Virus record (IMG/VR): IMGVR_UViG_3300017705_000602
Strand: one strand, 5' to 3'
Source of the DNA: a virus
Taxonomy: Duplodnaviria; Heunggongvirae; Uroviricota; Caudoviricetes
DNA: 64,000 nucleotides
The first letter of the stretch is position 1. Every line of letters starts with the position of its first letter. This document shows positions 2,913-31,462 of the stretch, one piece after another. The translations under genes were made by a program, and so were the position numbers. The notes beneath the pieces were generated by a model, which saw only the letters and a program-made list of their open reading frames with translations, was not told where the DNA came from and searched no databases.

Positions 2913-2985
2913 GTGACTGTAGCTCAATTGGCAGAGCCCCTGGATGTGACCTAGGAAGACGCGGGATCGTTGCCCGTCAGTCACC
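2913..2985 (+). tRNA. tRNA-His (anticodon GTG)
   Basis: acceptor gtgactg/cagtcac, D-arm gctc..gagc, anticodon loop atGTGac, T-arm gcggg..cccgt; flanked by inverted repeat atacttagg/cctaagtat. Confidence 0.7.
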
Positions 2986-3000
2986 CCTAAGTATTTTTAC

Positions 3001-3076
3001 GTTCCGTTCATCTAGCGGTTTAGGATATTGCCCTTTCAAGGCAAGTACACGGGTTCGAATCCCGTACGGAACACCA
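3001..3076 (+). tRNA. tRNA-Glu (anticodon TTC)
   Basis: acceptor gttccgt/acggaac, anticodon stem ttgcc/ggcaa with loop ctTTCaa, T-loop ttcgaat, encoded CCA. Confidence 0.8.
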
Positions 3077-3086
3077 TTTTTCAATC

Positions 3087-3159
3087 GCGGGGTGGACTGG
3101 AGTTGGTTCCAGCTCAGGCTCATAACCTGAACGACGGGGGTTCGAATCCCTCCTCCGCA
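3087..3159 (+). tRNA. tRNA with CAT anticodon (Met or Ile-lysidine type), copy 1
   Basis: anticodon stem tcagg/cctga, loop ctCATaa, T-loop ttcgaat, acceptor gcggggt/cctccgc with one mismatch. Confidence 0.65.
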
Positions 3160-3214
3160 TCCAAATTTATTGTTTTGTGATAAATACAAATAAATTATTT
3201 ACAAGGCAGTACAA

Positions 3215-3697
3215 ATGAGATTAAGCGAAATATTAACAGAAGCACCCGATCAAGGTTGGTTAACCGGCCCAGATATCGAAGTCGAAGTTATCGACTACAG
3301 TACAAGTGAAGTAAAACTTGTTTTGGGCATAGGCGAAGATGCTGACATTGTTGTTGATGCATATATTGATGTTGATGCAAGAGTCGAAGATCATAGCTTT
3401 GGATACGAATACGGATCGATATCAGGAACACATGAAGATTATTCACACGAAGGCGAAATATCTGTAAAGGACATTGATTTAGATATCGATGATCGCAGTA
3501 CTACTAAAAAAGCCGCACAGCTTTTGCGTGTGCCAGGCAGACAATCGTTAAATCCTGTTGTGTTACAAAAATATTTGTATCATGCATTCAAGGGTGGCGA
3601 GAAGGCTTTTACTAGTTTTATTGAAACGTATATCGATGAAACATTAGGTGAAGATTTAATTAACAGCGAAATCGAAAGTCGCAAAGACGACTATTAA
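3215..3697 (+). CDS. hypothetical acidic protein
   Basis: 160-aa ORF rich in Asp/Glu; no motif recognised. Confidence 0.5.
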   Translation: MRLSEILTEAPDQGWLTGPDIEVEVIDYSTSEVKLVLGIGEDADIVVDAYIDVDARVEDHSFGYEYGSISGTHEDYSHEGEISVKDIDLDIDDRSTTKKAAQLLRVPGRQSLNPVVLQKYLYHAFKGGEKAFTSFIETYIDETLGEDLINSEIESRKDDY

Positions 3698-3698
3698 C

Positions 3699-3989
3699 AT
3701 GAACGTTAATGTAAAAAAGACTCTAACTACACTGATAACCATTCTGCCATTGTTGGCTTTGCTTGGAACAGGCGCTATGTGGGTTGATACACGTTATATG
3801 CATAAGCAAATATCCGATACAAGATATATTGATTTGCAAATAAAAATAGTTCAAGGGCACATTAGAGAGTACGAAAGATTAAAAACTTCGGATGCTCCGT
3901 TGACAATGTCAGACGAAAGCAACTACAACACCGACTTGCGACAACTTGATAATTTGCTAAGTGAACGTAACAAGTTGTTGGGTATATGA
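3699..3989 (+). CDS. hypothetical membrane-anchored protein
   Basis: N-terminal hydrophobic segment LTTLITILPLLALLGTGAMW; start overlaps upstream stop. Confidence 0.5.
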   Translation: MNVNVKKTLTTLITILPLLALLGTGAMWVDTRYMHKQISDTRYIDLQIKIVQGHIREYERLKTSDAPLTMSDESNYNTDLRQLDNLLSERNKLLGI

Positions 3990-4234
3990 AAACATTATTA
4001 ATCGCAGTATTTTTATTTTTTGCATTAACTGCTAGTGCAAACACACCACCTGTTTACCAGGAAAACGCAATCGCAAATAACGGTGTTAGTGTAATACGTC
4101 TAGTGAACACTACACCTTATGCAGTCAGTTGTTGGTTAAGAGACGAATATACATTCACTTCGTTTGTTGTGCCCGGTCAGCGTGTAAGTTTATGGTATCC
4201 AATTTACGGATACTACGAATGGTACTGCGAATAA
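3986..4234 (+). CDS. small secreted protein
   Basis: signal-peptide-like N-terminus MKTLLIAVFLFFALTASA; ATGA overlap with upstream gene. Confidence 0.5.
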   Translation: MKTLLIAVFLFFALTASANTPPVYQENAIANNGVSVIRLVNTTPYAVSCWLRDEYTFTSFVVPGQRVSLWYPIYGYYEWYCE

Positions 4235-4241
4235 CTTCTTT

Positions 4242-4318
4242 AGTGGTATAGCTCAGTTGGTCAGAGCGTTCCCCTGATAAGGGAAAGGTCGCTGGTTCGA
4301 TTCCAGCTATCACTACCA
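4242..4318 (+). tRNA. tRNA-Ile (anticodon GAT)
   Basis: anticodon stem ttccc/gggaa, loop ctGATaa, T-arm gctgg ttcgatt ccagc, CCA encoded. Confidence 0.8.
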
Positions 4319-4434
4319 ATTAATCATTGACATGATAAAATGCATTGTATATACTTACTGTGCAATATATCACTGTAAGTGATATAAAAAAAGAACTGCG
4401 ATGTATAGAAAGCAGTTACAAGAGTAAGAAATTT

Positions 4435-4511
4435 CGGGATTTAGCACAGTCTGGTAGTGCGCACCGTTTGGGACGGTGAGGTCGCAGGTTCGAGCCCTGC
4501 AATCCCGACCA
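4435..4511 (+). tRNA. tRNA-Pro (anticodon TGG)
   Basis: acceptor cgggatt/aatcccg, anticodon stem caccg/cggtg, loop ttTGGga, CCA encoded. Confidence 0.8.
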
Positions 4512-4516
4512 GTTTT

Positions 4517-4592
4517 GTCCCTATAGCTCAGCGTGCAGAGCGTTCGACTCATAATCGATTGGTCCCTGGTTCGAATCCAGGTGGGGGCACCA
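4517..4592 (+). tRNA. tRNA with CAT anticodon, copy 2
   Basis: D-arm gctc agcgtgca gagc, loop ctCATaa, T-arm cctgg ttcgaat ccagg, acceptor with two G-U pairs, CCA encoded. Confidence 0.7.
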
Positions 4593-4608
4593 TTTCAAGG
4601 AATGCACA

Positions 4609-4941
4609 ATGTGGGAACAAGGTAGACAAGGTACCGGGTATCTTAAACGCAAGATATTTCAGTTTGCAAACGGTTGGTTTGCACTAGATTGTTATATACT
4701 TAAATACCCTGAGAAATCTTATATACCACCGCATACTGATCCGATACCGGGTCACAAGCATTTTAGATTGAACATTGTCTTAAAGAAAGCAAAAGTCGGC
4801 GGCAACGTATATTATTTTAACACCCGCTGTTATAGAAGAATTATGTTGTTTAGACCAGATTATATTGAACACGAAGTAAGCCAAGTACAACGAGGCGAAA
4901 GAATTGTGTTATCGATAGGTCTAGCAACTAAAAAAGTTTAA
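4609..4941 (+). CDS. small 2OG-Fe(II) oxygenase-like protein (paralog of 18452..18808)
   Basis: HxD...H-type signature YIPPHTDPIPGHKHFRLNIVL; same pattern in the paralog (FIPKHKDPSKYGKHYRFNITL). Confidence 0.5.
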   Translation: MWEQGRQGTGYLKRKIFQFANGWFALDCYILKYPEKSYIPPHTDPIPGHKHFRLNIVLKKAKVGGNVYYFNTRCYRRIMLFRPDYIEHEVSQVQRGERIVLSIGLATKKV

Positions 4942-5025
4942 GGAGTGGCTGAGCATTGGCGAGCTCACTTGGTTGTAACCCAAACGCCCCTGGCTGTGTC
5001 CGTTCGACTCGGACCTGCTCCACCA
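4942..5025 (+). tRNA. tRNA-Tyr (anticodon GTA), class II long variable arm
   Basis: acceptor ggagtgg/ctgctcc, loop ttGTAac, long variable arm, T-arm gtccg ttcgact cggac, CCA. Confidence 0.7.
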
Positions 5026-5030
5026 TATAA

Positions 5031-5105
5031 GCCTCCAAAGCATTAGTGGCGATGCACCGGTTTTGTAATCCGGGGAATTCAGTTCGATTCTGGATGGAGG
5101 CACCA
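5031..5105 (+). tRNA. tRNA-Thr (anticodon TGT; Gln TTG not excluded)
   Basis: acceptor gcctcca/tggaggc perfect, loop tTTGTAa region, T-loop ttcgatt, CCA; anticodon register ambiguous by hand. Confidence 0.6.
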
Positions 5106-5122
5106 AATACAAAGGTAAGCAC

Positions 5123-5440
5123 ATGTCACTTTATGCAATTGTATACGACGATAACGGATCTAGAAAGTTTTGCCATGCAGACGGTACTGCGTACTTTGGG
5201 CTCGATCGCGCCGAGCTAACAAAAACATGCGCCGAAATAATAAAAAAAATGAAATGGCAGCTTGACTGTTCTCCGGTAACTATCCAAGGATTTTTGTCAT
5301 GTCGTGTTGAACGAACTGGCACCTTAACACCGGAGACACAAGCAAGATATAGCACGATGTTAGAAAGCATCCGTGTTGTAAAAGTTACCGAAATGTCATT
5401 TGACGATGGTGTAGAATTACCAGAGAAAACAAATGAATGA
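5123..5440 (+). CDS. hypothetical protein
   Basis: 105-aa ORF with AAAGG RBS; preferred over the antisense ORF 5131..5562 by strand consistency. Confidence 0.45.
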   Translation: MSLYAIVYDDNGSRKFCHADGTAYFGLDRAELTKTCAEIIKKMKWQLDCSPVTIQGFLSCRVERTGTLTPETQARYSTMLESIRVVKVTEMSFDDGVELPEKTNE

Positions 5441-5597
5441 TAAACTAATAAAGGCGTTGCACGAATACAAGCCAACGCAACAAGACGTTCGTGAATTTGC
5501 AAAAAGTGTTCGAGAGCAAGAAGAGCAGTATTGTAAAACGACACGAAAATTAACTCCGACACAAGCAGATCGCAATCGATACTACAACATGTAAAGG
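5433..5597 (+). CDS. small hypothetical protein (54 aa)
   Basis: ATG overlapping upstream stop, GAGAAAA upstream; below the ORF-track cutoff. Confidence 0.3.
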
Positions 5598-5604
5598 TAA
5601 TGAA

Positions 5605-5793
5605 ATGCGAAAGCAGTCAGTGCGCAATAAAAGAAAGCAGTCGATAGCATTTAAAGAATACCGACTATGGTATAAAAGTTTAGGCATCGACCTTGAAAAT
5701 ACTTCGCTTGTACAAGGCAGAGCGCTTACTAAAACCGAAACTGACGACGGTGAAATAATTCATCCGTTTACATACATTTACGAAAAGAATTAA
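5605..5793 (+). CDS. small hypothetical basic protein
   Basis: 62-aa ORF, AAAGG RBS 7 nt upstream. Confidence 0.35.
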   Translation: MRKQSVRNKRKQSIAFKEYRLWYKSLGIDLENTSLVQGRALTKTETDDGEIIHPFTYIYEKN

Positions 5794-5794
5794 A

Positions 5795-5865
5795 GGGGCG
5801 CGTCATGGATGCGGATGATCGTTTGCAACGATTAGAGCGGGGTTCGATTCCCCGGTGCTCCACCA
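5795..5865 (+). tRNA. tRNA-Ala (anticodon TGC)
   Basis: anticodon stem gatcg/cgatt, loop ttTGCaa, T-arm cgggg ttcgatt ccccg, acceptor ggggcgc/gtgctcc with G-U pairs, CCA; D-arm irregular. Confidence 0.55.
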
Positions 5866-5932
5866 CATAAAGGAATGCTATGTTTTATTTTGAACTAGAT
5901 ATCCGATCATGTATTAACATGAGGATATCAAA

Positions 5933-6142
5933 ATGCACAGAAAAGGTCATAGCAACAGCGGATGGGTTCGCTTACTAAAACAAGTTAGCCAATCCGATTT
6001 TGAATATCGCGAATACTGCGTAAAACGTATTCGCTACAAATCATATTATGATACAGTTTACGATGGTGTACAGTGGGATCACCCTTACCGCACCAAGCCA
6101 CAACGTTCGTGGAAAACGTACCGTAAAGCACAGTTTAAGTAG
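5933..6142 (+). CDS. small hypothetical protein
   Basis: 69-aa ORF; 3' end abuts tRNA-Val. Confidence 0.35.
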   Translation: MHRKGHSNSGWVRLLKQVSQSDFEYREYCVKRIRYKSYYDTVYDGVQWDHPYRTKPQRSWKTYRKAQFK

Positions 6143-6215
6143 TCCGGTAACTCAGAGGCAGAGTGTCGTCTTTACACGGCGAAGGTCGGGATTTCGAAAT
6201 TCCCCCGGACTACCA
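6141..6215 (+). tRNA. tRNA-Val (anticodon TAC)
   Basis: acceptor agtccgg/ccggact, D-arm actc..gagt, loop ttTACac, CCA. Confidence 0.7.
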
Positions 6216-6258
6216 AAGTATTTTGTAGTAACTTTGATAACTTAACTAATGGACTAGA

Positions 6259-6513
6259 ATGAAACTAGAATTAAACAGAGTTACTTCGCATTTAAGAATC
6301 TTTATCGACGACAACAAGTCAACAGACAATAGAGATCCTTACGACACTATAATTACTGTTCAGCACATAAGTGATACAGAAGTACACTTGTCTGGACTTA
6401 AAGGTGTCATGAATAGAGAAATACTTAAAGAGATTGAACAGTTCTTTCGTGAACAAGGTGTTACCACTGTAACATTCGAAAGGCACGGAAAACAGCAATC
6501 TCGTAAAGATTAA
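6259..6513 (+). CDS. small hypothetical protein
   Basis: 84-aa ORF between tRNAs. Confidence 0.4.
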   Translation: MKLELNRVTSHLRIFIDDNKSTDNRDPYDTIITVQHISDTEVHLSGLKGVMNREILKEIEQFFREQGVTTVTFERHGKQQSRKD

Positions 6514-6514
6514 T

Positions 6515-6608
6515 GGAAGGTGACACGCCGAGATGGTCGGTGTCCTGGTCTTGAAAACCAGTGGAACCCTTGACGGGGTTTGGGGATCGTGCCCTCCGCC
6601 TTCCGCCA
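6515..6608 (+). tRNA. tRNA-Ser (anticodon TGA), class II
   Basis: anticodon stem ctggt/accag, loop ctTGAaa, long variable arm, acceptor ggaaggt/gccttcc, CCA; 94 nt. Confidence 0.65.
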
Positions 6609-6625
6609 TATAAAAGGTAGACAAA

Positions 6626-6892
6626 ATGACAATGAATGCGTATTATTGTTTAAGATGCGAACATCCTAACAATTGCAAGTGCGAAGACAAATCGAAAACA
6701 TTTCGGTATTCGCACAAGTTAAGAGTTCCTACATCGACCAAGAACAAAGTTAAGTTTAGAAAGTTCTTGGATGATTGTCCGATATTTGCTAATTGTGTAC
6801 CAGACGAGTTACAAGAAGATTTTCGTAACTTGTTAAGAAAAGTCAAGTACACCGGCCGTGAAATAAACGGTCACAAGTGGACAAAAGTTTAA
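6626..6892 (+). CDS. small Cys-rich (zinc-finger-like) protein
   Basis: 88 aa with CLRCEH..CKCED and C..C pairs. Confidence 0.45.
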   Translation: MTMNAYYCLRCEHPNNCKCEDKSKTFRYSHKLRVPTSTKNKVKFRKFLDDCPIFANCVPDELQEDFRNLLRKVKYTGREINGHKWTKV

Positions 6893-6893
6893 T

Positions 6894-6952
6894 GCCCTGG
6901 TAGCTCAGTTGGATTAGAGCATGCCGCTACGAACGGTAAGGCCGCAGGTTCA
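6894..6952 (+). pseudogene. tRNA-Arg (anticodon ACG) 5' fragment, truncated inside the T-loop at the HNH gene boundary
   Basis: intact acceptor 5' strand, D-arm, anticodon arm tgccg-ctACGaa-cggta and T-stem 5' strand gcagg-ttca; sequence then runs into tgataaatatatgcATG; no matching 3' acceptor found. Confidence 0.55.
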
Positions 6953-6966
6953 TGATAAATATATGC

Positions 6967-7644
6967 ATGGACTATACAAAACATTATGACGCCCTTATCG
7001 AACGTGCAAAACAGCGTGTGTTAACATGCTATACAGAAAACCATCATGTGATACCGAAATGCTTAGGTGGCAACGATACCAAAGAAAACATCGTGATGTT
7101 ACTACCGGAAGAACACTATGTAGCGCATCAGCTATTGGTAAAAATTTATCCTGGTAGTAAACAGCTTTTGTATGCGGCACTAATGATGACAGTTTCATCG
7201 GCAAGTGTTAAGCGTAAAAATAAAGCTTATAAATGGTTAAAAGAAAAATACCACTTGGTGTGCAAAGAAAGAACCGGTGTAAAAAATCCATCGTATGGTA
7301 AACCTTGGTATCACAATCCAGAAAATGGCGAATCGGGTAAATTTGAAGAAGATCAGCAACCCGTTGGATGGGTTAGAGGTCGAGTAAAGAAACCTAAAAG
7401 ATATTGCATTAAATGCAACACAGAAATTAATACATCTGTTGCTAAATGGTGCAACGAATGTAGACCAAAGAAAACTAAGAGTGTAATACGATCGGCTAAA
7501 CAAAAAGAAAAGTATTCTGAAGCTGATAAAATTAAAGCACTTAAAGAAAATAACGGTAATATAAGGCAGGCACTTTATAGCTTAGGTTTAAACGACAGCG
7601 GCTGGCATTATCGTAAAATGAAAGATTTATTAAGTAAGATTTGA
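6967..7644 (+). CDS. HNH homing endonuclease (paralog of 19865..20563)
   Basis: HHVIPKCLGGNDTKENIVML..EEHYVAH HNH motif, C-terminal CxxC..CxxC; start chosen by alignment with the paralog (MDYTKHYD / MDYKKLYY). Confidence 0.8.
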   Translation: MDYTKHYDALIERAKQRVLTCYTENHHVIPKCLGGNDTKENIVMLLPEEHYVAHQLLVKIYPGSKQLLYAALMMTVSSASVKRKNKAYKWLKEKYHLVCKERTGVKNPSYGKPWYHNPENGESGKFEEDQQPVGWVRGRVKKPKRYCIKCNTEINTSVAKWCNECRPKKTKSVIRSAKQKEKYSEADKIKALKENNGNIRQALYSLGLNDSGWHYRKMKDLLSKI

Positions 7645-7724
7645 GCGGTTGTATTCCCTCTGGCTACGAACCAGTTGAAAGGATAATTGGACACATGTAG
7701 GTTCGACTCCTACCTGCCGCGCCA
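7645..7724 (+). other. tRNA-like element immediately after the HNH stop codon (irregular; probable tRNA remnant or atypical tRNA)
   Basis: perfect T-arm gtagg ttcgact cctac, 3' acceptor ctgccgc + g + CCA, and a hairpin ctgg-ctACGaa-ccag carrying the same Arg-ACG anticodon loop as 6894 fragment; no room for a normal D-arm. Confidence 0.35.
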
Positions 7725-7732
7725 CTAACAAT

Positions 7733-7808
7733 GCGTCTGTAACTCAGTTGGTAGAGTGATGGTTTGAAGTACCATTGGTCGCTGGTTCGAACCCAGCCGG
7801 GCGCACCA
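7733..7808 (+). tRNA. tRNA-Phe (anticodon GAA)
   Basis: D-arm actc agttggta gagt, anticodon stem atggt/accat, loop ttGAAgt, T-arm gctgg ttcgaac ccagc, CCA. Confidence 0.8.
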
Positions 7809-7822
7809 TATTTAGGATAGAC

Positions 7823-8038
7823 ATGGATATCGAAGAGAAAACATTACTCAAGCTGTTTGAAATGAGGCACGGAGTATTAGCAAACAATTTTCACACTGAT
7901 ATCGAATATAACGACCCGACCATGATGGACCGTGCAGTAGGCGTAAATGTTTACAAAAACGGTGATTTTGTTTGGTCAGAGTCGGCAGTCAGTTTGTTGC
8001 TTTGGCACACTGGTAAACAATTAGGTATAAAAGAATGA
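7823..8038 (+). CDS. small hypothetical protein
   Basis: start moved to first ATG after tRNA-Phe; stop overlaps downstream start. Confidence 0.4.
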   Translation: MDIEEKTLLKLFEMRHGVLANNFHTDIEYNDPTMMDRAVGVNVYKNGDFVWSESAVSLLLWHTGKQLGIKE

Positions 8039-8481
8039 AACTGAGTTATAAAGATTGCGGCGTTATCGGATTTACTTGTAGTACATTTGATTTATTGCAT
8101 GCAGGTCATGTAGCAATGTTAGAAGAAGCAAAACGACAATGCGACTTCTTGATCGTAGGATTACAAAATGATCCGACTTTAGACAGACCAGTGCAAAAGA
8201 ATCCTCCTGTCCAAAGCTTAGTTGAACGCCAGATACAGTTAAGCGCAGTCAAGTTTGTTGACGATCTAGTGGTCTATAACACCGAAAAGGATCTTGAAGA
8301 TCTGTTGCTAACATTGCCAATTGCGGTTAGAATACTAGGTGTCGAATACGAGGACAAAGAATTCACTGGTAGAAAAATATGCCAGGACAAAGGAATCAAG
8401 TTGTTCTTTAACACACGAGATCACAGCTTTAGTAGCACCAGTTTAAGACAACGTGTAGCAGACTCGCAAAACGCAAAATAA
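8035..8481 (+). CDS. cytidylyltransferase-fold nucleotidyltransferase, RfaE/HldE domain II-like (heptose-1-phosphate adenylyltransferase family)
   Basis: HIGH motif FTCSTFDLLHAGHV; downstream LIVGLQNDPTLDRPVQKNPPVQSLVERQ mirrors HldE-II LIVAVNSD...RPVNPLEQR. Confidence 0.7.
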   Translation: MKLSYKDCGVIGFTCSTFDLLHAGHVAMLEEAKRQCDFLIVGLQNDPTLDRPVQKNPPVQSLVERQIQLSAVKFVDDLVVYNTEKDLEDLLLTLPIAVRILGVEYEDKEFTGRKICQDKGIKLFFNTRDHSFSSTSLRQRVADSQNAK

Positions 8482-8547
8482 GGTTGTAATAACACCATAA
8501 AACGTGTAATATTACAACTCAATAACAGAAACGGTGTAACGACAGCT

Positions 8548-8814
8548 ATGCGAGTATTTACAGCAGTAATAGACGAATATATTGACGTATTTGGCGAATG
8601 CCATGCTGTTAGAAACATGGTCCCGAATCAAGAAAGCACAACTCAAGATTTAGAAACCAGCTATCGTGAAGTTGCACAGCGCATTGCTGATACCAATTCG
8701 CATCGTGAGTTGATCAGTGTTACTATTTCCGCATACCGAGATAACAGCCTGGGTTGCTTTACGTATTGGCAAGGTGCTATGAGAACATACAAAATAGAAG
8801 AATTAAAAGGTTGA
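8548..8814 (+). CDS. hypothetical protein
   Basis: 88-aa ORF. Confidence 0.4.
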   Translation: MRVFTAVIDEYIDVFGECHAVRNMVPNQESTTQDLETSYREVAQRIADTNSHRELISVTISAYRDNSLGCFTYWQGAMRTYKIEELKG

Positions 8815-9001
8815 CAATATAAACACATTCATGTATAGTGTGTTCATATTGTAAAGTTTTAAGACACAAATAGTTCCTATGAAAATTCACTTTTAAGATA
8901 AAATACTATTCGTCTTACCGTATCAAGCGCCAGTGGCACACCAAAGTTGTATACCACCTTTAATAGCAGGTATGTAATGCCACTGGTAGCAATAAAAATT
9001 T

Positions 9002-9078
9002 GGAGTTGAGGTGTACCAGGATTGCATACTCCCCTGTCACGGGAAAGGTAGCGGGTTCGATCCCCGTCAACTCCGCCA
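9002..9078 (+). tRNA. tRNA-Asp (anticodon GTC)
   Basis: acceptor ggagttg/caactcc perfect, loop ctGTCac, T-arm gcggg ttcgatc cccgt, CCA; D-arm irregular. Confidence 0.6.
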
Positions 9079-9108
9079 GTTTTGCAAATGCTCCGAGACG
9101 GGTGTTTG

Positions 9109-9176
9109 AGGAAGATAGCTTAATAGGAAAAGCATCCTTAGGGACGTTATGGACGGTTCGAATCCGGTCCTTCCAC
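9109..9176 (+). other. tRNA-like sequence (possible pseudo-tRNA; anticodon arm not resolvable)
   Basis: D-arm gctt aataggaa aagc and T-loop ggttcgaatcc present, but acceptor pairing and U33 anticodon loop could not be found. Confidence 0.3.
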
Positions 9177-9183
9177 ATTTTTT

Positions 9184-9261
9184 GGAGAGTAAGCATAAGC
9201 GGTATATGCGGTCGCCTGTTAAGCGAATGACAGTCGGGTTCGAATCCCACACTCTCCGCCA
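9184..9261 (+). tRNA. tRNA-Asn (anticodon GTT)
   Basis: acceptor ggagagt/actctcc perfect, D-arm gcat..atgc, loop ctGTTaa, CCA; weak 3-bp T-stem. Confidence 0.6.
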
Positions 9262-9266
9262 CATTT

Positions 9267-9344
9267 GGGTCGCTAGCTCAATTGGTTAGTAGCACCGGCC
9301 TTTTAAGCCGTAGGTTCCGAGTTCGAGTCTCGGGCGACCCACCA
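9267..9344 (+). tRNA. tRNA-Lys (anticodon TTT)
   Basis: acceptor gggtcgc/gcgaccc perfect, anticodon stem ccggc/gccgt, loop ctTTTaa, T-arm ccgag ttcgagt ctcgg, CCA. Confidence 0.8.
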
Positions 9345-9362
9345 CTTTTTAAGGAATGAATA

Positions 9363-9911
9363 ATGGGCTATCGTGTACGTCTTGGTCGCTTTCCGAAAGT
9401 TGATCGTAAACGTTATATGCACCTTAAATCAGAAGCAGAAGCTTACGAATGGTTTGAACAGCACGACACAGAACATGCACATTATCGTCCACGAGAACTG
9501 CAAGAGCTTGTTGAACTTGGCAAGTATGTCGACTATAAAAAGCAAGGTCTCGATGTAGAAAAGTTTTACGAGTTCGATCTTGAGGAAAACGATTTTATTA
9601 TTGTTAACCGAGAGTTTTTATTGCACATCATCGAAGAGTATCGAACAAATACAGTAGTCTGGTATACCGAACTGCTAGACGAAGTTGCAAGCGGCGACGT
9701 TGCACAAGTTAGTTTTCATCTCAAAAACAAAATAAATGAATGGGATAATAAGTATTACAGCAATTTAAAGACAGAAGAACACGACACAGGCAAGCACGAA
9801 GATGGTCGATTAACACGATCGTGGAAGTTTGAATATGCAGTGTTCAATTTACTGTTTATATTACACACATTCGACTGGGACAATGATTATTTAATCTACA
9901 GCGGATGGTAA
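9363..9911 (+). CDS. hypothetical protein
   Basis: 182-aa ORF with AAGGAATGAATAATG RBS context between tRNA-Lys and tRNA-Ser. Confidence 0.5.
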   Translation: MGYRVRLGRFPKVDRKRYMHLKSEAEAYEWFEQHDTEHAHYRPRELQELVELGKYVDYKKQGLDVEKFYEFDLEENDFIIVNREFLLHIIEEYRTNTVVWYTELLDEVASGDVAQVSFHLKNKINEWDNKYYSNLKTEEHDTGKHEDGRLTRSWKFEYAVFNLLFILHTFDWDNDYLIYSGW

Positions 9912-9917
9912 GAACAA

Positions 9918-10008
9918 GGTGAGTTGGCAGAGTTGGTCTATTGCGCTTGACTGCTAATCAAGAGTCCTGTAACCGGGGCACGTGGGTTCGAATCCCACAC
10001 TCACCGCC
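9918..10008 (+). tRNA. tRNA-Ser (anticodon GCT), class II
   Basis: acceptor ggtgagt/actcacc, anticodon stem cttga/tcaag, loop ctGCTaa, long variable arm, T-loop ttcgaat, CCA. Confidence 0.8.
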
Positions 10009-10026
10009 AAACACAAGGATTACAAC

Positions 10027-11160
10027 GTGTCAAAACGAATAGTAGTAAAAGTTGGCTCTACATTGTTAGCAAACGAAGAAACACTTAGAATGCGATTTGC
10101 ATTTATGTGGGGTTTGCTACGTGATATAGCCGATCTACAAAATCAAGGTTACGATGTAGTACTAATGAGTTCTGGTGCAGTTGCACTAGGTAGAGAAATA
10201 CTCAAAACAGATGACAACAGTATTGCAACCAAACAAGCCGCATCGGCTTGTGGGCAACCAGTATTACTGCATGCTTACAGATCGATTGCACAAGAAATGA
10301 GCAAAGATATTGCTCAAGTGTTGGTTACCATGAGCGAAATGGAATCGCAAGATCATTTTGATGATATCAGCAACACAATTGAACGTTTGTTTGATTATCC
10401 TGTTATTCCTATTGTTAACGAAAACGATACCACAGCAACAAAAGATTTGCGCGTTGGCGACAATGACAGGCTAGCGGCAAAAGTTGCCGAAATGATTGGT
10501 GCAGAACACTTGGTTATACTTACCAGTATTGACGGTTTATACGATCGAAATCCAAGTGATCCAGACGCACAGTTTATCGATGTGCTTGATGATGTTAGTC
10601 AGTATATTGACGGCACAGAAGAAACAAACGGCCTGGGCAGCGGTGGCATGAAAACTAAATTGCAAGCCGCAAACATGGCACAGCAATGCAATTGTACCAC
10701 ACATATTGCCGAAGGCATCATAGATGCACCGGTGTCAAGTGTTATTAATAATACACGAGTGCATACTAAATGTTTGCCGATTGACCAGACAGCATCCAGG
10801 CAAGAACTTTGGTTAAGTAACCGATTGCGAGTAGCATGTTCGATTATTGTTCCGAAACAAGTTGCACAATCTCTTGCAGACACAAAGCAAAATATCGTGT
10901 ATAATGATATTGCTTCACGCTTTGGCGCATTCAGCAGAGATGATATTTTACATGTGTTTAGCGAAGATGGTGTTGAATTAGCACGTGGGTATGCAGAATG
11001 TTCAAGTGATGATCTTGAACACTTGCAACACATGCGCAACCAGTTTGATTCAGAATACGGTGCAGACGCATTGATAATCAAACAAGACCGCATGATGCTA
11101 GTGGAGTCCAGTCAGTTAAGCTGGGACGCACCGGACATTGAAACAACACAATCTGTTTAA
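10027..11160 (+). CDS. glutamate 5-kinase (ProB)-like amino-acid-kinase-family protein with C-terminal PUA domain
   Basis: VVKVGSTLL, VLMSSGAVALGRE, PIVNENDTTATKDLRVGDNDRLAA, GSGGMKTKLQAAN match ProB blocks; C-terminal region matches the ProB PUA domain. GTG start at 10027 chosen (AAGGA 8 nt upstream) because the track start at 9982 lies inside tRNA-Ser. Confidence 0.75.
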   Translation: MSKRIVVKVGSTLLANEETLRMRFAFMWGLLRDIADLQNQGYDVVLMSSGAVALGREILKTDDNSIATKQAASACGQPVLLHAYRSIAQEMSKDIAQVLVTMSEMESQDHFDDISNTIERLFDYPVIPIVNENDTTATKDLRVGDNDRLAAKVAEMIGAEHLVILTSIDGLYDRNPSDPDAQFIDVLDDVSQYIDGTEETNGLGSGGMKTKLQAANMAQQCNCTTHIAEGIIDAPVSSVINNTRVHTKCLPIDQTASRQELWLSNRLRVACSIIVPKQVAQSLADTKQNIVYNDIASRFGAFSRDDILHVFSEDGVELARGYAECSSDDLEHLQHMRNQFDSEYGADALIIKQDRMMLVESSQLSWDAPDIETTQSV

Positions 11161-11170
11161 GGAAATAAAC

Positions 11171-11404
11171 ATGTGCGATAAAAAAATTACAATTTCGGTT
11201 TACCTTGACACAGGTGTAGTTAGAGAATACGATGTATCCAATCATGCAAGTGCTAGAGAGCACGTTGCAGAAATCGTAAAGACAGGTTACCGACATATTG
11301 ACGGAGACAAATTAACACACGTACCTCCGCATAAAATTAGTAAAGTTTGTGCTCAAGGCCCGGGTATTGATACTAAATATCCAGACCGTGTAAGAGGCAC
11401 GTAG
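11171..11404 (+). CDS. small hypothetical protein
   Basis: ATG at 11171 with AAGGA RBS; 77 aa. Confidence 0.45.
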   Translation: MCDKKITISVYLDTGVVREYDVSNHASAREHVAEIVKTGYRHIDGDKLTHVPPHKISKVCAQGPGIDTKYPDRVRGT

Positions 11405-11576
11405 ATTGTACTTGTCATTTTTTATTTACTACCTTGGATTAGTAATTGCATTTGCAATACAAGTAGTTCTATTTCCAAGCAGTAGAATAACGTTTACACA
11501 AGCGTTTGTACTATTATTTAAGTCGTTTGGCTCGTGGCTAACCATCGGTTGGTTATGGACAAAACGCAAACAGTTA

Positions 11577-11651
11577 TAGAGGTATAGCCAAGCGGTTACG
11601 GCATCGGACTTTGAATTCGACATCGCTGGTTCGAATCCAGCTACCTCTGCC
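11577..11651 (+). tRNA. tRNA-Gln (anticodon TTG)
   Basis: acceptor agaggta/tacctct perfect, anticodon stem tcgga/ttcga, loop ctTTGaa, T-arm gctgg ttcgaat ccagc, CCA. Confidence 0.7.
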
Positions 11652-11808
11652 ACATTTAAGCTGTAATTGTTAGCCGTCCAGAGAGGATAGGGGCAGGCAT
11701 CTGAACTTGTTTGATTGCGCATACACAAGAAGGAAGGATGTCGACGTTTATAAGCATTGGCCCGCTTTTAAACAACTTTACAGCTTAAACCTATTTTGAG
11801 GAAATGTT

Positions 11809-12291
11809 ATGTTTAGTGCTTTTGGTAGACTGGTTTACAAGTGCGTAAATGCAGCAGTCGGAGTTAATCTCACAGAGCAAGACAAGAAAAACATACAAGC
11901 ATTACAAAACAGAAAAGGTCCTGCAGAAGCAGTACGCGAATATTGGAAAAAAGCCGAGCAAGGCAAACAAAAAGTGCCTGGTGTTGCAAAAAATCTTAAA
12001 CCGGGCGACTTGTCTAACAATCAAGATTGGATGTACATACAAGATATCGGCCAGTATATTTCTCCGCGTGGCAACGATCGCAAACACACAGTGATTGTAC
12101 AAGAAGTGCGTAGGCACACTGCTGGTGTAGAAATTGCAAGGATTGAGTGTACTAACTCAATTTACAGCGAATGGATAGTAGCATGTTCAAACAGCATGTG
12201 GCATACACAAGCAAAGACAGCTCAGGACATTCATGGTAATTTTTACCACTTAGGGCAAATGTGCCAAACTAGATGTACAGTAACTTATTAA
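11809..12291 (+). CDS. hypothetical protein
   Basis: 160-aa ORF ending 1 nt before tRNA-Leu. Confidence 0.5.
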   Translation: MFSAFGRLVYKCVNAAVGVNLTEQDKKNIQALQNRKGPAEAVREYWKKAEQGKQKVPGVAKNLKPGDLSNNQDWMYIQDIGQYISPRGNDRKHTVIVQEVRRHTAGVEIARIECTNSIYSEWIVACSNSMWHTQAKTAQDIHGNFYHLGQMCQTRCTVTY

Positions 12292-12375
12292 GCGGGTATG
12301 GTGGAACGGTATACACAGAGTGCTTAAAACGCTCCGACTTCGGTCATGCAGGTTCGAATCTTGCTACCCGCACCA
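12292..12375 (+). tRNA. tRNA-Leu (anticodon TAA), class II
   Basis: acceptor gcgggta/tacccgc perfect, anticodon stem gagtg/cgctc, loop ctTAAaa, long variable arm, T-loop ttcgaat, CCA. Confidence 0.75.
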
Positions 12376-12382
12376 TTTTTAT

Positions 12383-12457
12383 GCAGTATTAGCTCAGTAG
12401 GTAGAGCGTTGGTCTGCCAGTCCAAAGGTCATCGGTTCGAACCCGATATACTGCTCC
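12383..12457 (+). tRNA. tRNA-Gly (anticodon GCC, tentative)
   Basis: acceptor gcagtat/atactgc perfect, D-arm gctc agtaggta gagc, loop ctGCCag with one stem mismatch, T-arm atcgg ttcgaac ccgat, CCA. Confidence 0.6.
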
Positions 12458-12467
12458 AAGGATACAC

Positions 12468-12773
12468 ATGATTGCATACAACTTTAAAAAAGTAAACAAC
12501 CAAGACCTTACTTATGCAATAGTAGGAAACATTGCAATCGATTTCGGGTACATAACCAGAAAAGAACGTTCTGATTTTAGGCAGTTTTTACAATCGCACA
12601 ACTTTATTAAAAAAGTCGACGGATGCATAAACTTTGAAATTGTATACCCTTTTGTGTATCGCACAGTAAAAAGTAACAAAACAGACGATGCGTTAATGAC
12701 GGTGCATTTATTCAAGCAAGGCGTTTACATCAACTACGATTTTGTTGAAGTTGAATTTCTTGAAGTTGAATAA
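12468..12773 (+). CDS. hypothetical protein
   Basis: 101-aa ORF with GGA RBS context. Confidence 0.45.
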   Translation: MIAYNFKKVNNQDLTYAIVGNIAIDFGYITRKERSDFRQFLQSHNFIKKVDGCINFEIVYPFVYRTVKSNKTDDALMTVHLFKQGVYINYDFVEVEFLEVE

Positions 12774-12800
12774 ATACATATATAACCATGAGGAAAAAAT

Positions 12801-13079
12801 ATGTTTTGTAAGAATTGTGCAACAGAAATAAGCGACCGAGCAAGGTCATGCCCTAAATGCGGACATCCAGTTTGCGAAGAAGGTGCCAAGTCAAAAGTTG
12901 CTTTTGTTATATTGGCGCTACTAGTAGGCGGCTTTGGCATTCACCGTATGTATATCGGTGATTGGTTGCTTGGTATTATATACCTTGTTTTTTGTTGGAC
13001 ATTTATTCCAGCTTTAGTTGCGTTAATAGAAGCTATAGTTATCGGATTTAGAAAAGACGATCCACGCTTCGAATATTAA
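12801..13079 (+). CDS. zinc-ribbon + TM2-domain membrane protein
   Basis: N-terminal CxxC..CxxC ribbon (CKNC..CPKC) followed by two hydrophobic helices with G..G.HRMYIGD pattern typical of TM2 domain. Confidence 0.6.
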   Translation: MFCKNCATEISDRARSCPKCGHPVCEEGAKSKVAFVILALLVGGFGIHRMYIGDWLLGIIYLVFCWTFIPALVALIEAIVIGFRKDDPRFEY

Positions 13080-13084
13080 ATAAT

Positions 13085-13170
13085 GCGGATGTGGTGAAAT
13101 GGGAGACACGCCAGGTTTAGGCCCTGGTGCTAGAAATAGCGTGAGAGTTCGAATCTCTCCATCCGTACCA
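13085..13170 (+). tRNA. tRNA-Leu (anticodon TAG), class II
   Basis: anticodon stem ccagg/cctgg perfect, loop ttTAGgc, long variable arm, T-loop ttcgaat, acceptor gcggatg/catccgt, CCA. Confidence 0.75.
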
Positions 13171-13177
13171 TTTTATA

Positions 13178-13774
13178 CTAGGCCCTTTTTATAATTATTG
13201 CTTGACGACCCATGAACACATTAAGATGTTCATTGTGAATCATGCAAAAGCGGTTTACTGCTTTATAAACACCGGGCCAGTTTTCTTCACTGTAATCATC
13301 GAAATATAAAACTCCTCCTTTCTTTATTTTAGGATACCATTGGTTTATATTTGATTTAGTTTGATCGTAAGTGTGTCCTGCATCGATGTAGATAAAGTCA
13401 ACACTTTCGTCTTCGAACGTCATTTCTTCAACTGCAAGCGGAAGCACAGCTTTTACAAGATGCAGATTTTTTACATCTTGTAAATTTTCTCGTACAGTTT
13501 CCACGCAGTATATTTGATCCGTATCGGCATTATGTAAAAGTGAGTCTTGTTGAAAACTAGCAAGCGTTCTTGGATTACACGGATCACCGAACCAATCGTA
13601 ACAGTACAGATGAACAGAATCTTTTTTATTCATGCCAAGTGCATACGCACTTCTGCCTGCAAACGTACCGAGTTCTACTATGGTGCCATTTTCGGGCACT
13701 TGCTTTGCATATTTTGCTAAGTTTACGAGTGAGCAAGTATTTCCCCAACCGCATATATTTTCATTTATGATCAT
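13178..13774 (-). CDS. class I SAM-dependent methyltransferase (Methyltransf_24 / TylF-MycF-like O-methyltransferase family)
   Basis: minus-strand ORF; SAM-binding motif I IVELGTFAGRSA and motif FIYIDAGHTY...KGGVLYFDDY typical of TylF-type sugar O-methyltransferases. Confidence 0.65.
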   Translation of the reverse strand: MIINENICGWGNTCSLVNLAKYAKQVPENGTIVELGTFAGRSAYALGMNKKDSVHLYCYDWFGDPCNPRTLASFQQDSLLHNADTDQIYCVETVRENLQDVKNLHLVKAVLPLAVEEMTFEDESVDFIYIDAGHTYDQTKSNINQWYPKIKKGGVLYFDDYSEENWPGVYKAVNRFCMIHNEHLNVFMGRQAIIIKRA

Positions 13775-13853
13775 AGCATTATTTATCGGGTACTACACCT
13801 CACTGTGATAAATATACGAAGCATATCGTTTAGGTCGGCAATATAGGAAAACA

Positions 13854-14447
13854 ATGTTAACTACAATTTTGTCAACGCCAAGAACAGGCAGTTCGACTTT
13901 TAGCAACGAAGTAGGTTTAAGTTGGTTTCCTTCTTGCCATCCAAACAAGAATAACCGAGAGTATTTTAATTTTTTACATTGCGACACACCTGAACAAGTG
14001 ACCGAATATTGCGATCGCTATATTGGGTTACTTGAAGAGAAAGTATTAAAAGACGACCAGGATATAGTAATCAAGATACTGATATCCCATCTAGAACATC
14101 AGCCACACATACTGGATCGTGTGTTAGCAATTAGCAGTAAAATTTATCACACTGTTCGTTACAACTACCAAGATCATTTAAAAAGTTATACATCATCAAG
14201 ATTGTCTGGCGAATGGGGAGCTTCTCGCAAGCGTGAGCAGATATCGGTGTGCAACAACACAGTGTCGTTATTCCATACGCACCTTACAGCTCAACTAAAA
14301 ATGCATTCGGATCTTTATCATTTGGTCGGCGGCGACCTTGTTGTACTTGAAGAAAGGACACAAAACAGATATCCGCAAGTACCAGTATTCAATAACAATA
14401 TTATCTGGCCGTCATTCGATACAGAGGCACAGTTTAAAAAACGATAA
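13854..14447 (+). CDS. sulfotransferase-like protein (tentative)
   Basis: N-terminal P-loop-like LSTPRTGSSTF resembling the 5'-PSB PAPS-binding motif; AGGAAAACAATG RBS; divergent from the methyltransferase gene. Confidence 0.4.
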   Translation: MLTTILSTPRTGSSTFSNEVGLSWFPSCHPNKNNREYFNFLHCDTPEQVTEYCDRYIGLLEEKVLKDDQDIVIKILISHLEHQPHILDRVLAISSKIYHTVRYNYQDHLKSYTSSRLSGEWGASRKREQISVCNNTVSLFHTHLTAQLKMHSDLYHLVGGDLVVLEERTQNRYPQVPVFNNNIIWPSFDTEAQFKKR

Positions 14448-14470
14448 ATAATGGTAGTATTCCAAATCAC

Positions 14471-14547
14471 GGTTGTGTAGTTCAGTCTGGTAGAACAGGA
14501 GACTCATATTCTCTATGTCGCAGGTTCAAATCCTGCCTCAACCACCA
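14471..14547 (+). tRNA. tRNA with CAT anticodon, copy 3
   Basis: D-arm gttc agtctggta gaac, anticodon stem ggaga/tctct, loop ctCATat, T-arm gcagg ttcaaat cctgc, CCA. Confidence 0.65.
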
Positions 14548-19677: not shown

Positions 19678-19808
19678 GCGGGCGTAGCTCAGTTGGATTA
19701 GAGCAACGGTTGTTTAAATGTCCCCTGTGCCGACACCGGTCTTCTAAACCGGAAGCATAAAAAACGTTGGGTTGGAGCTGGGAGGTTCGACTCCTCCAGG
19801 GGATGCCA
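19678..19808 (+). other. composite tRNA-like region upstream of HNH gene
   Basis: 19678-19710 = normal tRNA 5' part (acceptor gcgggcg, ta, D-arm gctc agttggatta gagc). Further on: perfect hairpin ccggt-ctTCTaa-accgg, perfect T-arm ggagg ttcgact cctcc, then aggggat-g-CCA (matches gtcccct at 19718). No canonical cloverleaf. Confidence 0.35.
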
Positions 19809-19864
19809 TTTTTAAAATCTGTGATAAATACTTTTACTTTAATGTTAGAAGTAGAAGAATTATC

Positions 19865-30107: not shown

Positions 30108-30138
30108 TAATGATAAATATCTCTACTAGGAGATATTA

Positions 30139-31449: not shown

Positions 31450-31462
31450 AGGCAGCTTTTTA
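31437..31462 (+). terminator. rho-independent terminator
   Basis: hairpin agctgcc-taaa-ggcagct + T5. Confidence 0.65.

Follow-up and report, generated by a model that had tools for sequence, protein, structure and literature searches.

A predicted HxGH nucleotidylyltransferase of a large marine T4-like phage and its candidate partner genes

Results and discussion

The gene at 8035-8481 and its product

The window analysed here, a stretch of 64,000 nucleotides, belongs to a large marine T4-like phage. On its plus strand, an ATG-started ORF at positions 8035-8481 encodes a protein of 148 aa, a cytidylyltransferase-like HxGH nucleotidylyltransferase of PHROG 7878 (hereafter, the transferase). 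A nucleotidylyltransferase of the HIGH/HxGH type had been described at this locus in the first-pass annotation, and the profile search bore this out: the protein scored 41.6 bits against Pfam PF01467 CTP_transf_like (gathering score 21; E 1.8e-10) and carried HAGH at residues 22-25, that is, an HxGH motif with H22-A-G-H25. Its C-terminal motif reads R128-D-H-S-F-S-S-T135. Residues 11-143 were aligned with positions 3-130 of the 131 positions of the PHROG 7878 profile (E 4.8e-30), and this full-length match makes the protein a member of that family. The name of PHROG 7878, "heptose kinase/adenylyltransferase", is an annotation label and not a tested function.

The AlphaFold2 model of the transferase had a mean pLDDT of 92.2 and a pTM of 0.83. 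A Foldseek comparison of this model retrieved TagD (1coz), TarD (2b7l), HldC (5xf2), CCT and ECT with E values of ~1e-8 to 1e-7 and TM of ~0.7. A score above the gathering threshold, a Rossmann-like fold and HxGH define the PF01467 superfamily, and all three were found in the protein, which is assigned by family and fold to the class-I (HxGH) enzymes of the GCT/CCT/ECT/HldC clade.

The gene is real and conserved. Other contigs carry an identical copy of the 148-aa protein. In one database, 8000 relatives received scores, and 1100 representative clusters were retrieved at E<=1e-10 from another. No paralog was found in the window, where the gene is single-copy. A 5-kb stretch surrounding the gene had no megablast match in 50,697 phage records; therefore, close cultured relatives of the phage are lacking.

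The gene is isolated, with tRNA genes and small ORFs around it. The stop codon of an upstream ORF of 71 aa (7823-8038, plus strand) overlaps the start of the transferase gene (ATGA), and translational coupling of the two is possible. Gene calls on three independent contigs included the 71-aa ORF; neither Pfam nor PHROG matched it, and in none of 80 viral loci did a homolog of it lie near the transferase. For the ORFs flanking the transferase gene (71 aa and 88 aa), neither a family nor a conserved linkage was found. In a scan for promoters and terminators around the gene, sites were no commoner than in shuffled sequence.

Candidate partner genes in the window

A PMM gene had been predicted elsewhere in the window, and it was located at 40314-41036 on the plus strand. 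It encodes a PMM-type HAD-IIB protein of 240 aa with a DxDGT motif (D12-L-D-G-T), which scored 75.4 bits against PF03332 PMM over 218 of the 221 profile positions and also matched PF08282. NCBIfam models gave HAD-IIB only, and the PHROG assignment was 29277. This gene co-occurs with the transferase gene on jumbo-phage contigs of ~320-335 kb.

What the first-pass annotation had called a dehydrogenase fragment is a UDPG_MGDP_dh-type gene at 46009-46797 on the plus strand; the gene exists, but it is not a fragment. Its product, a short NDP-sugar dehydrogenase of 262 aa, contains the N-terminal and central domains only (PF03721 and PF00984), and the UDP-binding C-terminal domain (PF03720) is absent. 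The protein scored 137.8 bits against TIGR03026, and its catalytic motifs are intact (GHGYVG at 7, STVTP at 80, PEFL at 102, KYAINSF at 160 and GGSCFPKD at 215). Standalone homologs of ~275-290 aa are abundant in marine metagenomes, and the short dehydrogenase represents a family of its own.

The PMM-like and short dehydrogenase genes lie 32-38 kb from the transferase gene. An SDR and a TylF-like methyltransferase had also been listed for the window. Neither was found in Pfam tables and scans and PHROG comparison of ~60 ORFs or in a motif scan. The sole SDR candidate from the motif scan was a 167-aa ORF at 29604-30107, which has TGxxGxxG and YxxxK motifs but is not supported by any profile. 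No homolog of the GalE-type SDR that adjoins the transferase in other phages was present in the window, and the scan of window ORFs revealed no glycosyltransferase.

Catalytic residues and nucleotide preference

Across 37 diverse members of the family, the catalytic residues H22, K55, R65, R128 and S133 were invariant, and H25 was retained in 36 of them. The subfamily also has invariant residues of its own, namely C36, R51, P58, E84 and T111, with H130 present in 35 of the 37 sequences. K55 aligns with the catalytic K46 of TagD. Arg128, which no member of the set lacks (37/37), aligns with the Arg of the signature RTEG(I/V)ST(S/T). Arg128, S133, S/T134 and T/S135 of this signature are kept, and it is divergent in the family because the TEG part reads (D/E)H(S/R).

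The Arg of RTEG(I/V)ST(S/T) stacks on cytosine in CCT, ECT and GCT (PMC6060094), whereas in HldC Phe143, at the position of Arg128, stacks on adenine (PMC7993394). Since Arg128 occupies the position of the cytosine-stacking Arg and HldC has Phe143 there, we infer that the transferase probably uses CTP and not ATP. To our knowledge, the acceptors of all known CTP-using members of the fold are phospho-alcohols (glycerol-3-P, phosphocholine, phosphoethanolamine and hydroxyethylphosphonate) and not sugar-1-phosphates. Therefore, the assignment of CTP and the assignment of a sugar-1-P substrate are in tension.

Judged by family criteria, the transferase belongs to a distinct, biochemically uncharacterised subfamily that is neither TagD nor HldC. 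By Foldseek comparison of the transferase model, TagD and HldC were not separable.

Fusions and neighbours in relatives

Fusions of the transferase with other domains were found in relatives. A fusion of a short dehydrogenase (N-terminal and central domains) to the transferase was present in at least 23 clusters, which had diverged to 51% identity and came from contigs of up to 151 kb. In one such protein (P0158), the dehydrogenase half was 34% identical to the product of 46009-46797 over the full length (E 2e-45). In another fusion (P0234), the transferase was joined to a HAD part homologous to the PMM-like protein of 40314-41036 (E 2e-8). No PF01467 fusion occurred among the top 120 relatives of the PMM-like protein; therefore, the transferase-HAD fusion is rare. 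A third protein (P0197) combined a GmhA-like isomerase with a relative 46% identical to the transferase of the window, and this arrangement points to a relation of the transferase family to sugar phosphates. A GT2-transferase fusion also exists.

Neighbouring genes were counted in the +-8 kb flanks of transferase homologs in 80 viral and 80 bacterial loci. In 21 of the 80 viral loci, the 8-kb flanks of the transferase contained the short dehydrogenase; these loci represented two backbones with differing relative positions of the genes. When the 60 commonest neighbour families were considered, only the transferase and the short dehydrogenase were also present in the window. None of the 80 viral or 80 bacterial loci had a PMM-like gene in these flanks. 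In Acinetobacter phage Ab1-TPeters, a PMM-like homolog (PHROG 29277) is located directly downstream of the transferase, which is 68% identical to that of the window. Thus, the cooperation with a PMM-like gene that the first-pass annotation had suggested is supported by the P0234 fusion and the adjacency in Ab1-TPeters, and the cooperation with the dehydrogenase is supported by the P0158-type fusions and the proximity of the two genes in viral loci. Other sugar genes recurred as well: GalE directly upstream of the transferase in ~31 of the 80 viral loci (318 bits, cutoff 262) and, in a different viral backbone, a GT2 gene at the second position downstream. In several other phages, the transferase is a lone gene, as is the dehydrogenase-transferase fusion, and Pfam annotation of the genes around the latter gave no clue.

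Chromosomal orthologs with 62-67% identity were found in Flavobacterium, Myroides, Sphingobacterium and Tenacibaculum (Bacteroidota). Their neighbours included genes for NAD-epimerase/dehydratase, full-length UDP-sugar dehydrogenase, ManC, RmlA, a NusG-like protein and flippase, and these orthologs sit in surface-polysaccharide loci. Genes for sugar dehydrogenases and epimerases commonly occur in polysaccharide loci of every kind, so that this bacterial context offers weak evidence of a particular partnership.

Proposed activity

It is considered fairly probable (about 0.6) that the gene encodes an active stand-alone HxGH nucleotidylyltransferase, acting probably on CTP and a sugar or polyol phosphate, and that it forms a dispersed three-gene module with the genes at 40314-41036 and 46009-46797. 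We infer the substrate class and the order of the steps as follows. The PMM-type HAD-IIB protein would supply or interconvert the phosphorylated substrate, acting as a mutase that converts a sugar-6/7-P to a sugar-1-P; alternatively, it may be a pathway phosphatase. The transferase would then convert an NTP (probably CTP) and the phosphorylated sugar or polyol to an NDP-activated, probably CDP-linked, product and pyrophosphate. The short dehydrogenase would oxidise a primary alcohol of the activated product to an acid. The NDP-activated product would be a building block for a glycoconjugate and may be destined for the host envelope, the virion or DNA; glycosylation of DNA or virion had been suggested in the first-pass annotation.

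Alternative activities

A true TagD/GCT, which would convert glycerol-3-phosphate of the host to CDP-glycerol so that glycerol phosphate decorates a host or phage polymer, is less probable. TagD and TarD (B. subtilis 1COZ/1N1D; S. aureus 2B7L) resemble the transferase in being single domains of ~130-150 aa and in fold, HxGH motif, catalytic Lys and Arg-led C-terminal signature (RTEGISTT, in place of which the transferase has RDHSFSST), and the equivalents of TagD R113 and K46, Arg128 and K55, are invariant in the family. Both were the best single-domain structure matches by Foldseek and by the family profile, with which TagD scored 73 bits, TarD 69 bits and HldC 54 bits; yet TagD, the best solved-structure match, is only ~23-26% identical to the transferase. 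Glycerol-3-P occurs in every host, and such a substrate would suit a gene that stands by itself in phages infecting very different hosts; the TagD name is used by JGI and in several phage records. However, TIGR01518 g3p_cytidyltrns gave 45.4 bits, below its equivalog cutoff of 165.4 and below the rfaE_dom_II score, and the family, unlike TagD, has its own set of invariant residues. Neither the Pfam tables for the window nor the recurrent neighbours examined in viral and bacterial loci included a CDP-glycerol transferase of the TagB/TagF type. The genomic partners of the transferase are sugar-phosphate and NDP-sugar enzymes, not teichoic-acid genes, and glycerol-3-P as substrate would not account for the proteins to which the transferase is fused or adjacent in relatives (PMM-type mutase, GmhA-like isomerase and NDP-sugar dehydrogenase). 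Furthermore, most hosts of the carrier phages are Gram-negative or cyanobacterial, and such hosts lack teichoic acids.

Eukaryotic CCT and ECT share with the transferase the HxGH motif, the K-(G/N)-x-P-(V/I) loop and the Arg-led signature motif. The lowest PDB E-value was obtained for ECT because both ECT domains match. These enzymes serve phospholipid synthesis in the Kennedy pathway, whereas the context of the transferase hints at no choline or ethanolamine substrate.

A more specific scheme is unlikely. According to it, the transferase and the dehydrogenase without the C-terminal domain would be two parts of one enzyme, fused in some phages and split here, in which the transferase would also replace the missing nucleotide-binding domain. 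The PMM-like mutase would deliver a host sugar or polyol phosphate, and the product would be a CDP-linked uronic or aldonic acid, a compound so far undescribed, intended for a phage glycoconjugate, for modification of DNA or virion or for remodelling of the host surface. An AlphaFold2 model of a fusion of this type (P0277), built to see whether the transferase domain lies where UGDH has its UDP-binding domain, had a pLDDT of 85 and a pTM of 0.65. When it was compared with full-length UGDHs by Foldseek, 420-480 columns were aligned, but with an rmsd of 9-13 A and a TMq of ~0.6.

An enzyme of the HldE domain II/HldC type, which would convert ATP and beta-heptose-1-P to ADP-heptose, is quite improbable. 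The protein had been described as very close to HldE domain II. The part of this description that stands is that TIGR02199 rfaE_dom_II was its best NCBIfam model (79.8 bits, E 1.7e-22); the closeness itself does not, since this score is under half of the equivalog cutoff of 181.5 and solved TagD scored above HldC with the family profile. All of the best NCBIfam models scored below their cutoffs. The fold, the K-x-x-P loop and the Glu of EXTP are common to the two enzymes. [quoted passage not shown] The adenine-stacking Phe of the HldC motif FEHDRSTT is replaced by the invariant Arg128. This reading is favoured by the heptose name of PHROG 7878 and by the fusion, in the relative P0197, to a GmhA-like sedoheptulose-7-P isomerase. 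In cyanophage P-TIM68, a paralog with 30% identity lies in a cluster annotated as phosphoheptose isomerase, carbohydrate kinase, epimerases and glycosyltransferase. The companion ADP-heptose genes GmhA, HldA (or the kinase domain), GmhB and HldD were not detected by Pfam or PHROG comparison among the window ORFs scanned. Many of the carrier phages infect cyanobacteria, which are largely without LPS heptose. In a study of BpHldC, beta-glucose-1-P served as a surrogate for beta-heptose-1-P (PMC7993394).

The first-pass annotation had preferred sugar activation to NMN adenylylation, and this preference held. An NMNAT of NAD salvage is ruled out by the scores of NMNAT models (TIGR00482, 18.4 bits, cutoff 112; TIGR01526, 16.2 bits, cutoff 341; E 0.002-0.005) and by the lack of NMNAT structures among the top 50 Foldseek matches. 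A cofactor-salvage adenylyltransferase in the wider sense (NMN to NAD+, FMN to FAD as in archaeal RibL, or phosphopantetheine to dephospho-CoA), which might counter NAD+-depleting immunity or boost metabolism for the phage, is the least credible reading: it would agree with the shared fold superfamily, with the weak matches to PPAT (29.9 bits), NadD (18.4 bits), NadR and RibF models, with the 46 bits of the RibL-like archaeal protein 3glv with the family profile and with a lone gene acting on a universal metabolite in phages of many hosts, but every cofactor model scored far under its own cutoff and under the TagD and HldC models, the NMNAT family PHROG 3462 reached only E 0.0017, no NMNAT, PPAT or FMNAT except 3glv (rank 36) was among the top 50 structural matches, the bacterial orthologs with 62-67% identity lie in polysaccharide loci and not in cofactor operons, and the fusion partners are sugar-pathway domains.

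Relation to other phage genes

The three-gene module, which is the preferred reading, resembles the UDP-arabinose/arabinosyl-hydroxycytosine pathway of phages RB69 and DLP3 in that there a sugar phosphate is converted to an NDP-sugar by a HAD-type enzyme and a nucleotidyltransferase; in that pathway, the NDP-sugar goes onto DNA (PMC13326640). The RB69-type pathway is ruled out here because its nucleotidyltransferase has a GT-A/MurU-like fold, fused to a kinase, and not HxGH; no homologous cluster is present. The pentose pathway of Thanatos, which depends on a UDP-xylose pyrophosphorylase recognised from its structure, is likewise ruled out.

The TagD-like gene is a recurrent auxiliary gene of marine cyanophages, roseophages, vibriophages and uncultured jumbo phages. 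In the passages of the phage literature considered here, the function of the TagD/GCT AMG "remains unclear", and these passages make no mention of a link to a short dehydrogenase or a PMM-like gene (PMC9146016, PMC6918029). According to the present analysis, the transferase family recurs together with, or fused to, two kinds of protein: the truncated NDP-sugar dehydrogenase and the PMM-type HAD protein. The placement outside both TagD and HldC, the probable use of CTP and the sugar-gene partners narrow a vague annotation to decisive assays. If the product were CDP-glycerol or a common NDP-sugar, the gene would be an ordinary AMG; if the module made a new activated sugar acid, it would represent a new virus-directed route of glycan or DNA modification in the ocean.

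The genes annotated in phages as TagD, GCT or cytidylyltransferase AMGs belong to the same family (45-68% identity to the transferase of the window by tblastn). Their carriers include Synechococcus phages S-B43 and S-H68, roseophage CRP-6, Vibrio phages phiKT1024 and Va1 and Caulobacter phage Cr30. The transferase of the window does not differ from them in kind and is a new member of this family, the gene for which usually stands alone among small ORFs.

The transferase gene and its product

The HxGH nucleotidylyltransferase gene (8035-8481, plus strand) is an exact ORF with an ATG start encoding 148 aa, and its start is overlapped by the stop codon of a 71-aa upstream ORF (ATGA). An identical gene call was found on three independent metagenomic contigs; the window holds a single copy, whose GC content (0.396) matches the window value (0.406). 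The protein contains the motifs H22-A-G-H25 and, toward the C-terminus, R128-DHSFSST. In a Pfam search it matched PF01467 (CTP_transf_like) with 41.6 bits against a gathering score of 21, and PHROG 7878 was matched over the full length (E 4.8e-30). The AlphaFold2 model, for which 32 relatives served as input, was confident (pLDDT 92.2); its nearest structures were TagD, TarD, HldC, CCT and ECT (E 2e-8 to 1e-6, TM ~0.6-0.75). The ORF and the HIGH-motif fold claimed for it in the first-pass annotation were thus borne out.

Family placement and nucleotide preference

It had also been proposed that the enzyme is very close to HldE domain II (ADP-heptose synthesis). Although rfaE_dom_II was the top NCBIfam model, it scored 79.8 bits against a curated cutoff of 181.5, and the TagD model gave 45.4 bits against 165.4. 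The NMNAT, PPAT and RibF models were close to noise, and the earlier view that the protein is not an NMNAT was therefore upheld. A family profile built from 37 sequences was scored against solved structures and gave 73 bits for TagD, 69 for TarD, 54 for HldC, 46 for a RibL-like archaeal protein, 41 for CCT and 34 for the cytidylyltransferase domain of Fom1; the 104 bits obtained for ECT are the sum of two domains. On both sets of scores, the family is neither TagD nor HldC but a separate branch about equally distant from the two. Its invariant residues are G12, D19, H22, C36, R51, K55, P58, R65, E84, T111, R128 and S133.

[quoted passage not shown] In a HMMER alignment to 5X9Q, the corresponding motif positions of the transferase family read TCS, QND, KN, EKDL and LGV, and Phe143 is replaced by Arg128, which is invariant in all 37 family sequences. 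In CCT, the first arginine of RTEG(I/V)ST(S/T) stacks on the cytosine ring, and ECT and GCT show the same arginine movement (PMC6060094). Since Arg128 occupies the Phe143 position and matches this cytosine-stacking arginine, the aligned motifs make CTP more likely than ATP as the nucleotide. The closeness to HldE domain II and ADP-heptose synthesis was accordingly not sustained. A heptose-type cluster does surround a 30%-identical paralog of the transferase in cyanophage P-TIM68. The phage arabinose pathway differs in that its nucleotidyltransferase has a fold other than HxGH.

Partner genes

The PMM-like gene (HAD-type; 40314-41036, plus strand) and the dehydrogenase (46009-46797, plus strand) to which the transferase had been linked earlier are present in the window. 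Fusions were sought among relatives clustered at 50%. In P0158, the N-terminal and central UDPG_MGDP_dh domains precede the transferase domain, and this dehydrogenase half aligned with the window dehydrogenase over the full length (34% identity, E 2e-45). In P0234, the transferase domain is followed by a HAD Hydrolase_3 domain homologous to the PMM-like ORF (E 2e-8). Further relatives joined the domain to a preceding GmhA-like SIS isomerase (P0197; TIGR00441, 90.6 bits, below cutoff), a preceding GT2 domain (P0268) or a following cupin (P0143). Two more odd fusions were a SET domain before the transferase domain (P0188) and DUF6794 after it (P0191).

The dehydrogenase fusion (PF03721, PF00984 and PF01467) is no one-off: clustering at 90% identity left at least 23 clusters of it, as divergent as 51%, from contigs of up to 151 kb. 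Also very common in marine data are standalone dehydrogenases of ~275-290 aa that lack the C-terminal domain. It follows from both findings that the gene previously called a dehydrogenase fragment is a family of its own. It keeps all UGDH-type catalytic motifs, including the GGSCFPKD cysteine, and lacks the UDP-binding domain. Because the fusion order (N-terminal, central, transferase) mirrors the N-central-C order of UGDH, the transferase was considered as a possible stand-in for the lost nucleotide-binding domain. The AlphaFold2 model of another such fusion, P0277 (pLDDT 85, pTM 0.65), aligned with full-length UGDHs over 420-480 columns at an rmsd of 9-13 Å and TMq of ~0.6, values that imply rigid superposition for the first two domains only.

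Viral context was studied in 80 IMG/VR loci with transferases 66-80% identical. In 21 of them the short dehydrogenase lay within 8 kb of the transferase; two unrelated gene orders were represented, one placing it at -7.1 to -7.9 kb and the other at +4.1 to +5.5 kb. Just two of the 60 commonest neighbour families, the transferase itself and the short dehydrogenase, have homologs in the window, which covers 64 kb of a ~320-kb genome that may hold the others elsewhere. GalE, above its equivalog cutoff, was directly upstream of the transferase in ~31 of the 80 loci, and in another viral backbone a GT2 gene was two genes downstream. A ~256-aa protein comes directly after the transferase in one viral lineage (contigs L090, 8447-9229; L092, 8435-9190; L097, 8435-9205). 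It combines a P-loop domain resembling APS kinase with another HxGH nucleotidyltransferase domain, a weak match ('WHAGH ... ISATKIR'), and this arrangement suggests a putative kinase-nucleotidyltransferase pair.

The PMM-like family (PHROG 29277, no function named) is rarer. Neither the 80 viral loci nor 80 bacterial ones had it within 8 kb of the transferase; the two genes occur on the same jumbo-phage contigs, and in Acinetobacter phage Ab1-TPeters the PMM-like gene is directly downstream of the transferase. Together with the P0158 and P0234 fusions and the 21 loci, this adjacency makes cooperation of the transferase with both genes probable. Two other proposed partners fared worse: among the ORFs scanned in the window, no SDR had Pfam or PHROG support and no TylF-like methyltransferase was found. 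A 167-aa ORF (29604-30107, plus strand) without a Pfam or PHROG match has an SDR-like motif pair, TGxxGxxG at residue 7 and YxxxK at residue 100, and may be the SDR that was meant. The scan of window ORFs also revealed no glycosyltransferase.

Distribution in phages and bacteria

The family is large, with 8000 relatives scored in one database and 1100 representative clusters (E≤1e-10) in a second. Relatives in cultured phages include those of Acinetobacter phage Ab1-TPeters (68% identity), Vibrio phages phiKT1024 and Va1 (64%), roseophage CRP-6 (53%), Synechococcus phages S-H68 and S-B43 (49%) and Caulobacter phage Cr30; distant ones in Streptomyces phages adjoin a glycosyltransferase. Phage papers name the gene TagD, GCT or cytidylyltransferase and call its role 'unclear' (PMC9146016, PMC6918029, PMC12801897).

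The nearest cellular relatives (62-67% identical) are encoded on the chromosomes of Flavobacterium, Myroides, Sphingobacterium, Tenacibaculum and Polaribacter. Neighbourhood clustering of the 80 bacterial loci, confirmed with Pfam, revealed NAD-dependent epimerase/dehydratases in 51 and full-length UDP-sugar dehydrogenases in 47, with ManC- and RmlA-type nucleotidyltransferases, a NusG-like regulator, a GFO/IDH/MocA oxidoreductase and a MatE-like flippase also recurring. These are surface-polysaccharide loci. Since identity exceeds 60%, a common substrate is probable for the phage and bacterial enzymes.

Proposed reaction

On the best reading, the enzyme would transfer a nucleotidyl group from an NTP, probably CTP, to a phosphorylated acceptor, yielding an NDP-linked product and PPi. 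By analogy with GCT and CCT, the HxGH histidines and K55 would stabilise the transition state and Arg128 would hold the base (family knowledge; PMC6060094). The activated product would next serve as substrate for oxidation by the short dehydrogenase. The partners, namely a PMM-type mutase, a GmhA-like isomerase, GalE, an NDP-sugar dehydrogenase and GT2, argue for a sugar-1-phosphate as the acceptor. Glycerol-3-phosphate remains a rival acceptor, because the known CTP users of this fold act on phospho-alcohols. The transferase is one more member of a family of phage auxiliary genes that is known but biochemically uncharacterised and that belongs to a well-known enzyme superfamily; what is added here is the corrected family placement (neither TagD nor HldC, probably CTP-dependent) and a candidate two- or three-gene module.

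Genomic setting

The source of the window is a T4-like myovirus, as seen from rIIB, gp13, tail sheath and T4-type large terminase genes; a T4 spanin match was weak. The identical transferase protein occurs on a 319,623-bp contig, and contigs of 324-346 kb carry close relatives. A megablast of 5 kb around the gene against 50,697 phage records showed no cultured phage to be close at the DNA level. Within the window, the transferase is surrounded by a tRNA region, homing-endonuclease-like ORFs and small uncharacterised ORFs; a sugar operon is absent around it. The 23 tRNA genes (2913-33837, dense at 2913-14547) cover most amino acids and include three tRNA-Met genes. Scattered between them are small ORFs and homing-endonuclease-like genes, such as an HNH-like ORF (6952-7644); another ORF (19772-20563) matches PHROG 655 'homing endonuclease', and a sister contig has a GIY-YIG gene just upstream.

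Several other genes were observed, all on the plus strand. Right after tRNA-Ser lies a ProB-type glutamate-5-kinase-like gene (10027-11160; AA_kinase and a weak PUA domain), a proline-pathway auxiliary gene unusual in phages. A 244-aa ORF (14920-15654), whose call is uncertain because a 257-aa minus-strand ORF overlaps it, ends in a PEP-CTERM sorting motif (PF07589, 24.5 bits vs 20.7), which is normally linked to bacterial exosortase and exopolysaccharide systems. A radical SAM/SPASM protein lies between two weak QueC/Asn-synthase-like ATP-pyrophosphatase genes (18816-19415, 23163-24128 and 24329-24994). Other viral backbones carry the 7-deazaguanine genes FolE, QueD and QueE around the transferase, and together these genes hint that these phages may modify bases in DNA or RNA. 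A run of redox/host-takeover type (27467-32527) encodes rubredoxin, DHFR, a 2OG-Fe(II) oxygenase, a weak Asp/Arg-hydroxylase-like protein, the weak T4 spanin, glutaredoxin and a Band_7/SPFH protein. A UvdE-type UV-damage endonuclease (PF03851, E 3e-45) adjoins a glycoside hydrolase family 6 gene (PF01341, E 5e-57) at 36794-38688; the latter is odd in a marine phage because GH6 enzymes are cellulases. Just after the short dehydrogenase, a cREC_REC-domain protein and a DUF7230 protein are encoded (47266-47761), and a protein whose N-terminal domain is a TnsA-like endonuclease domain is encoded amid the structural genes (57336-57767).
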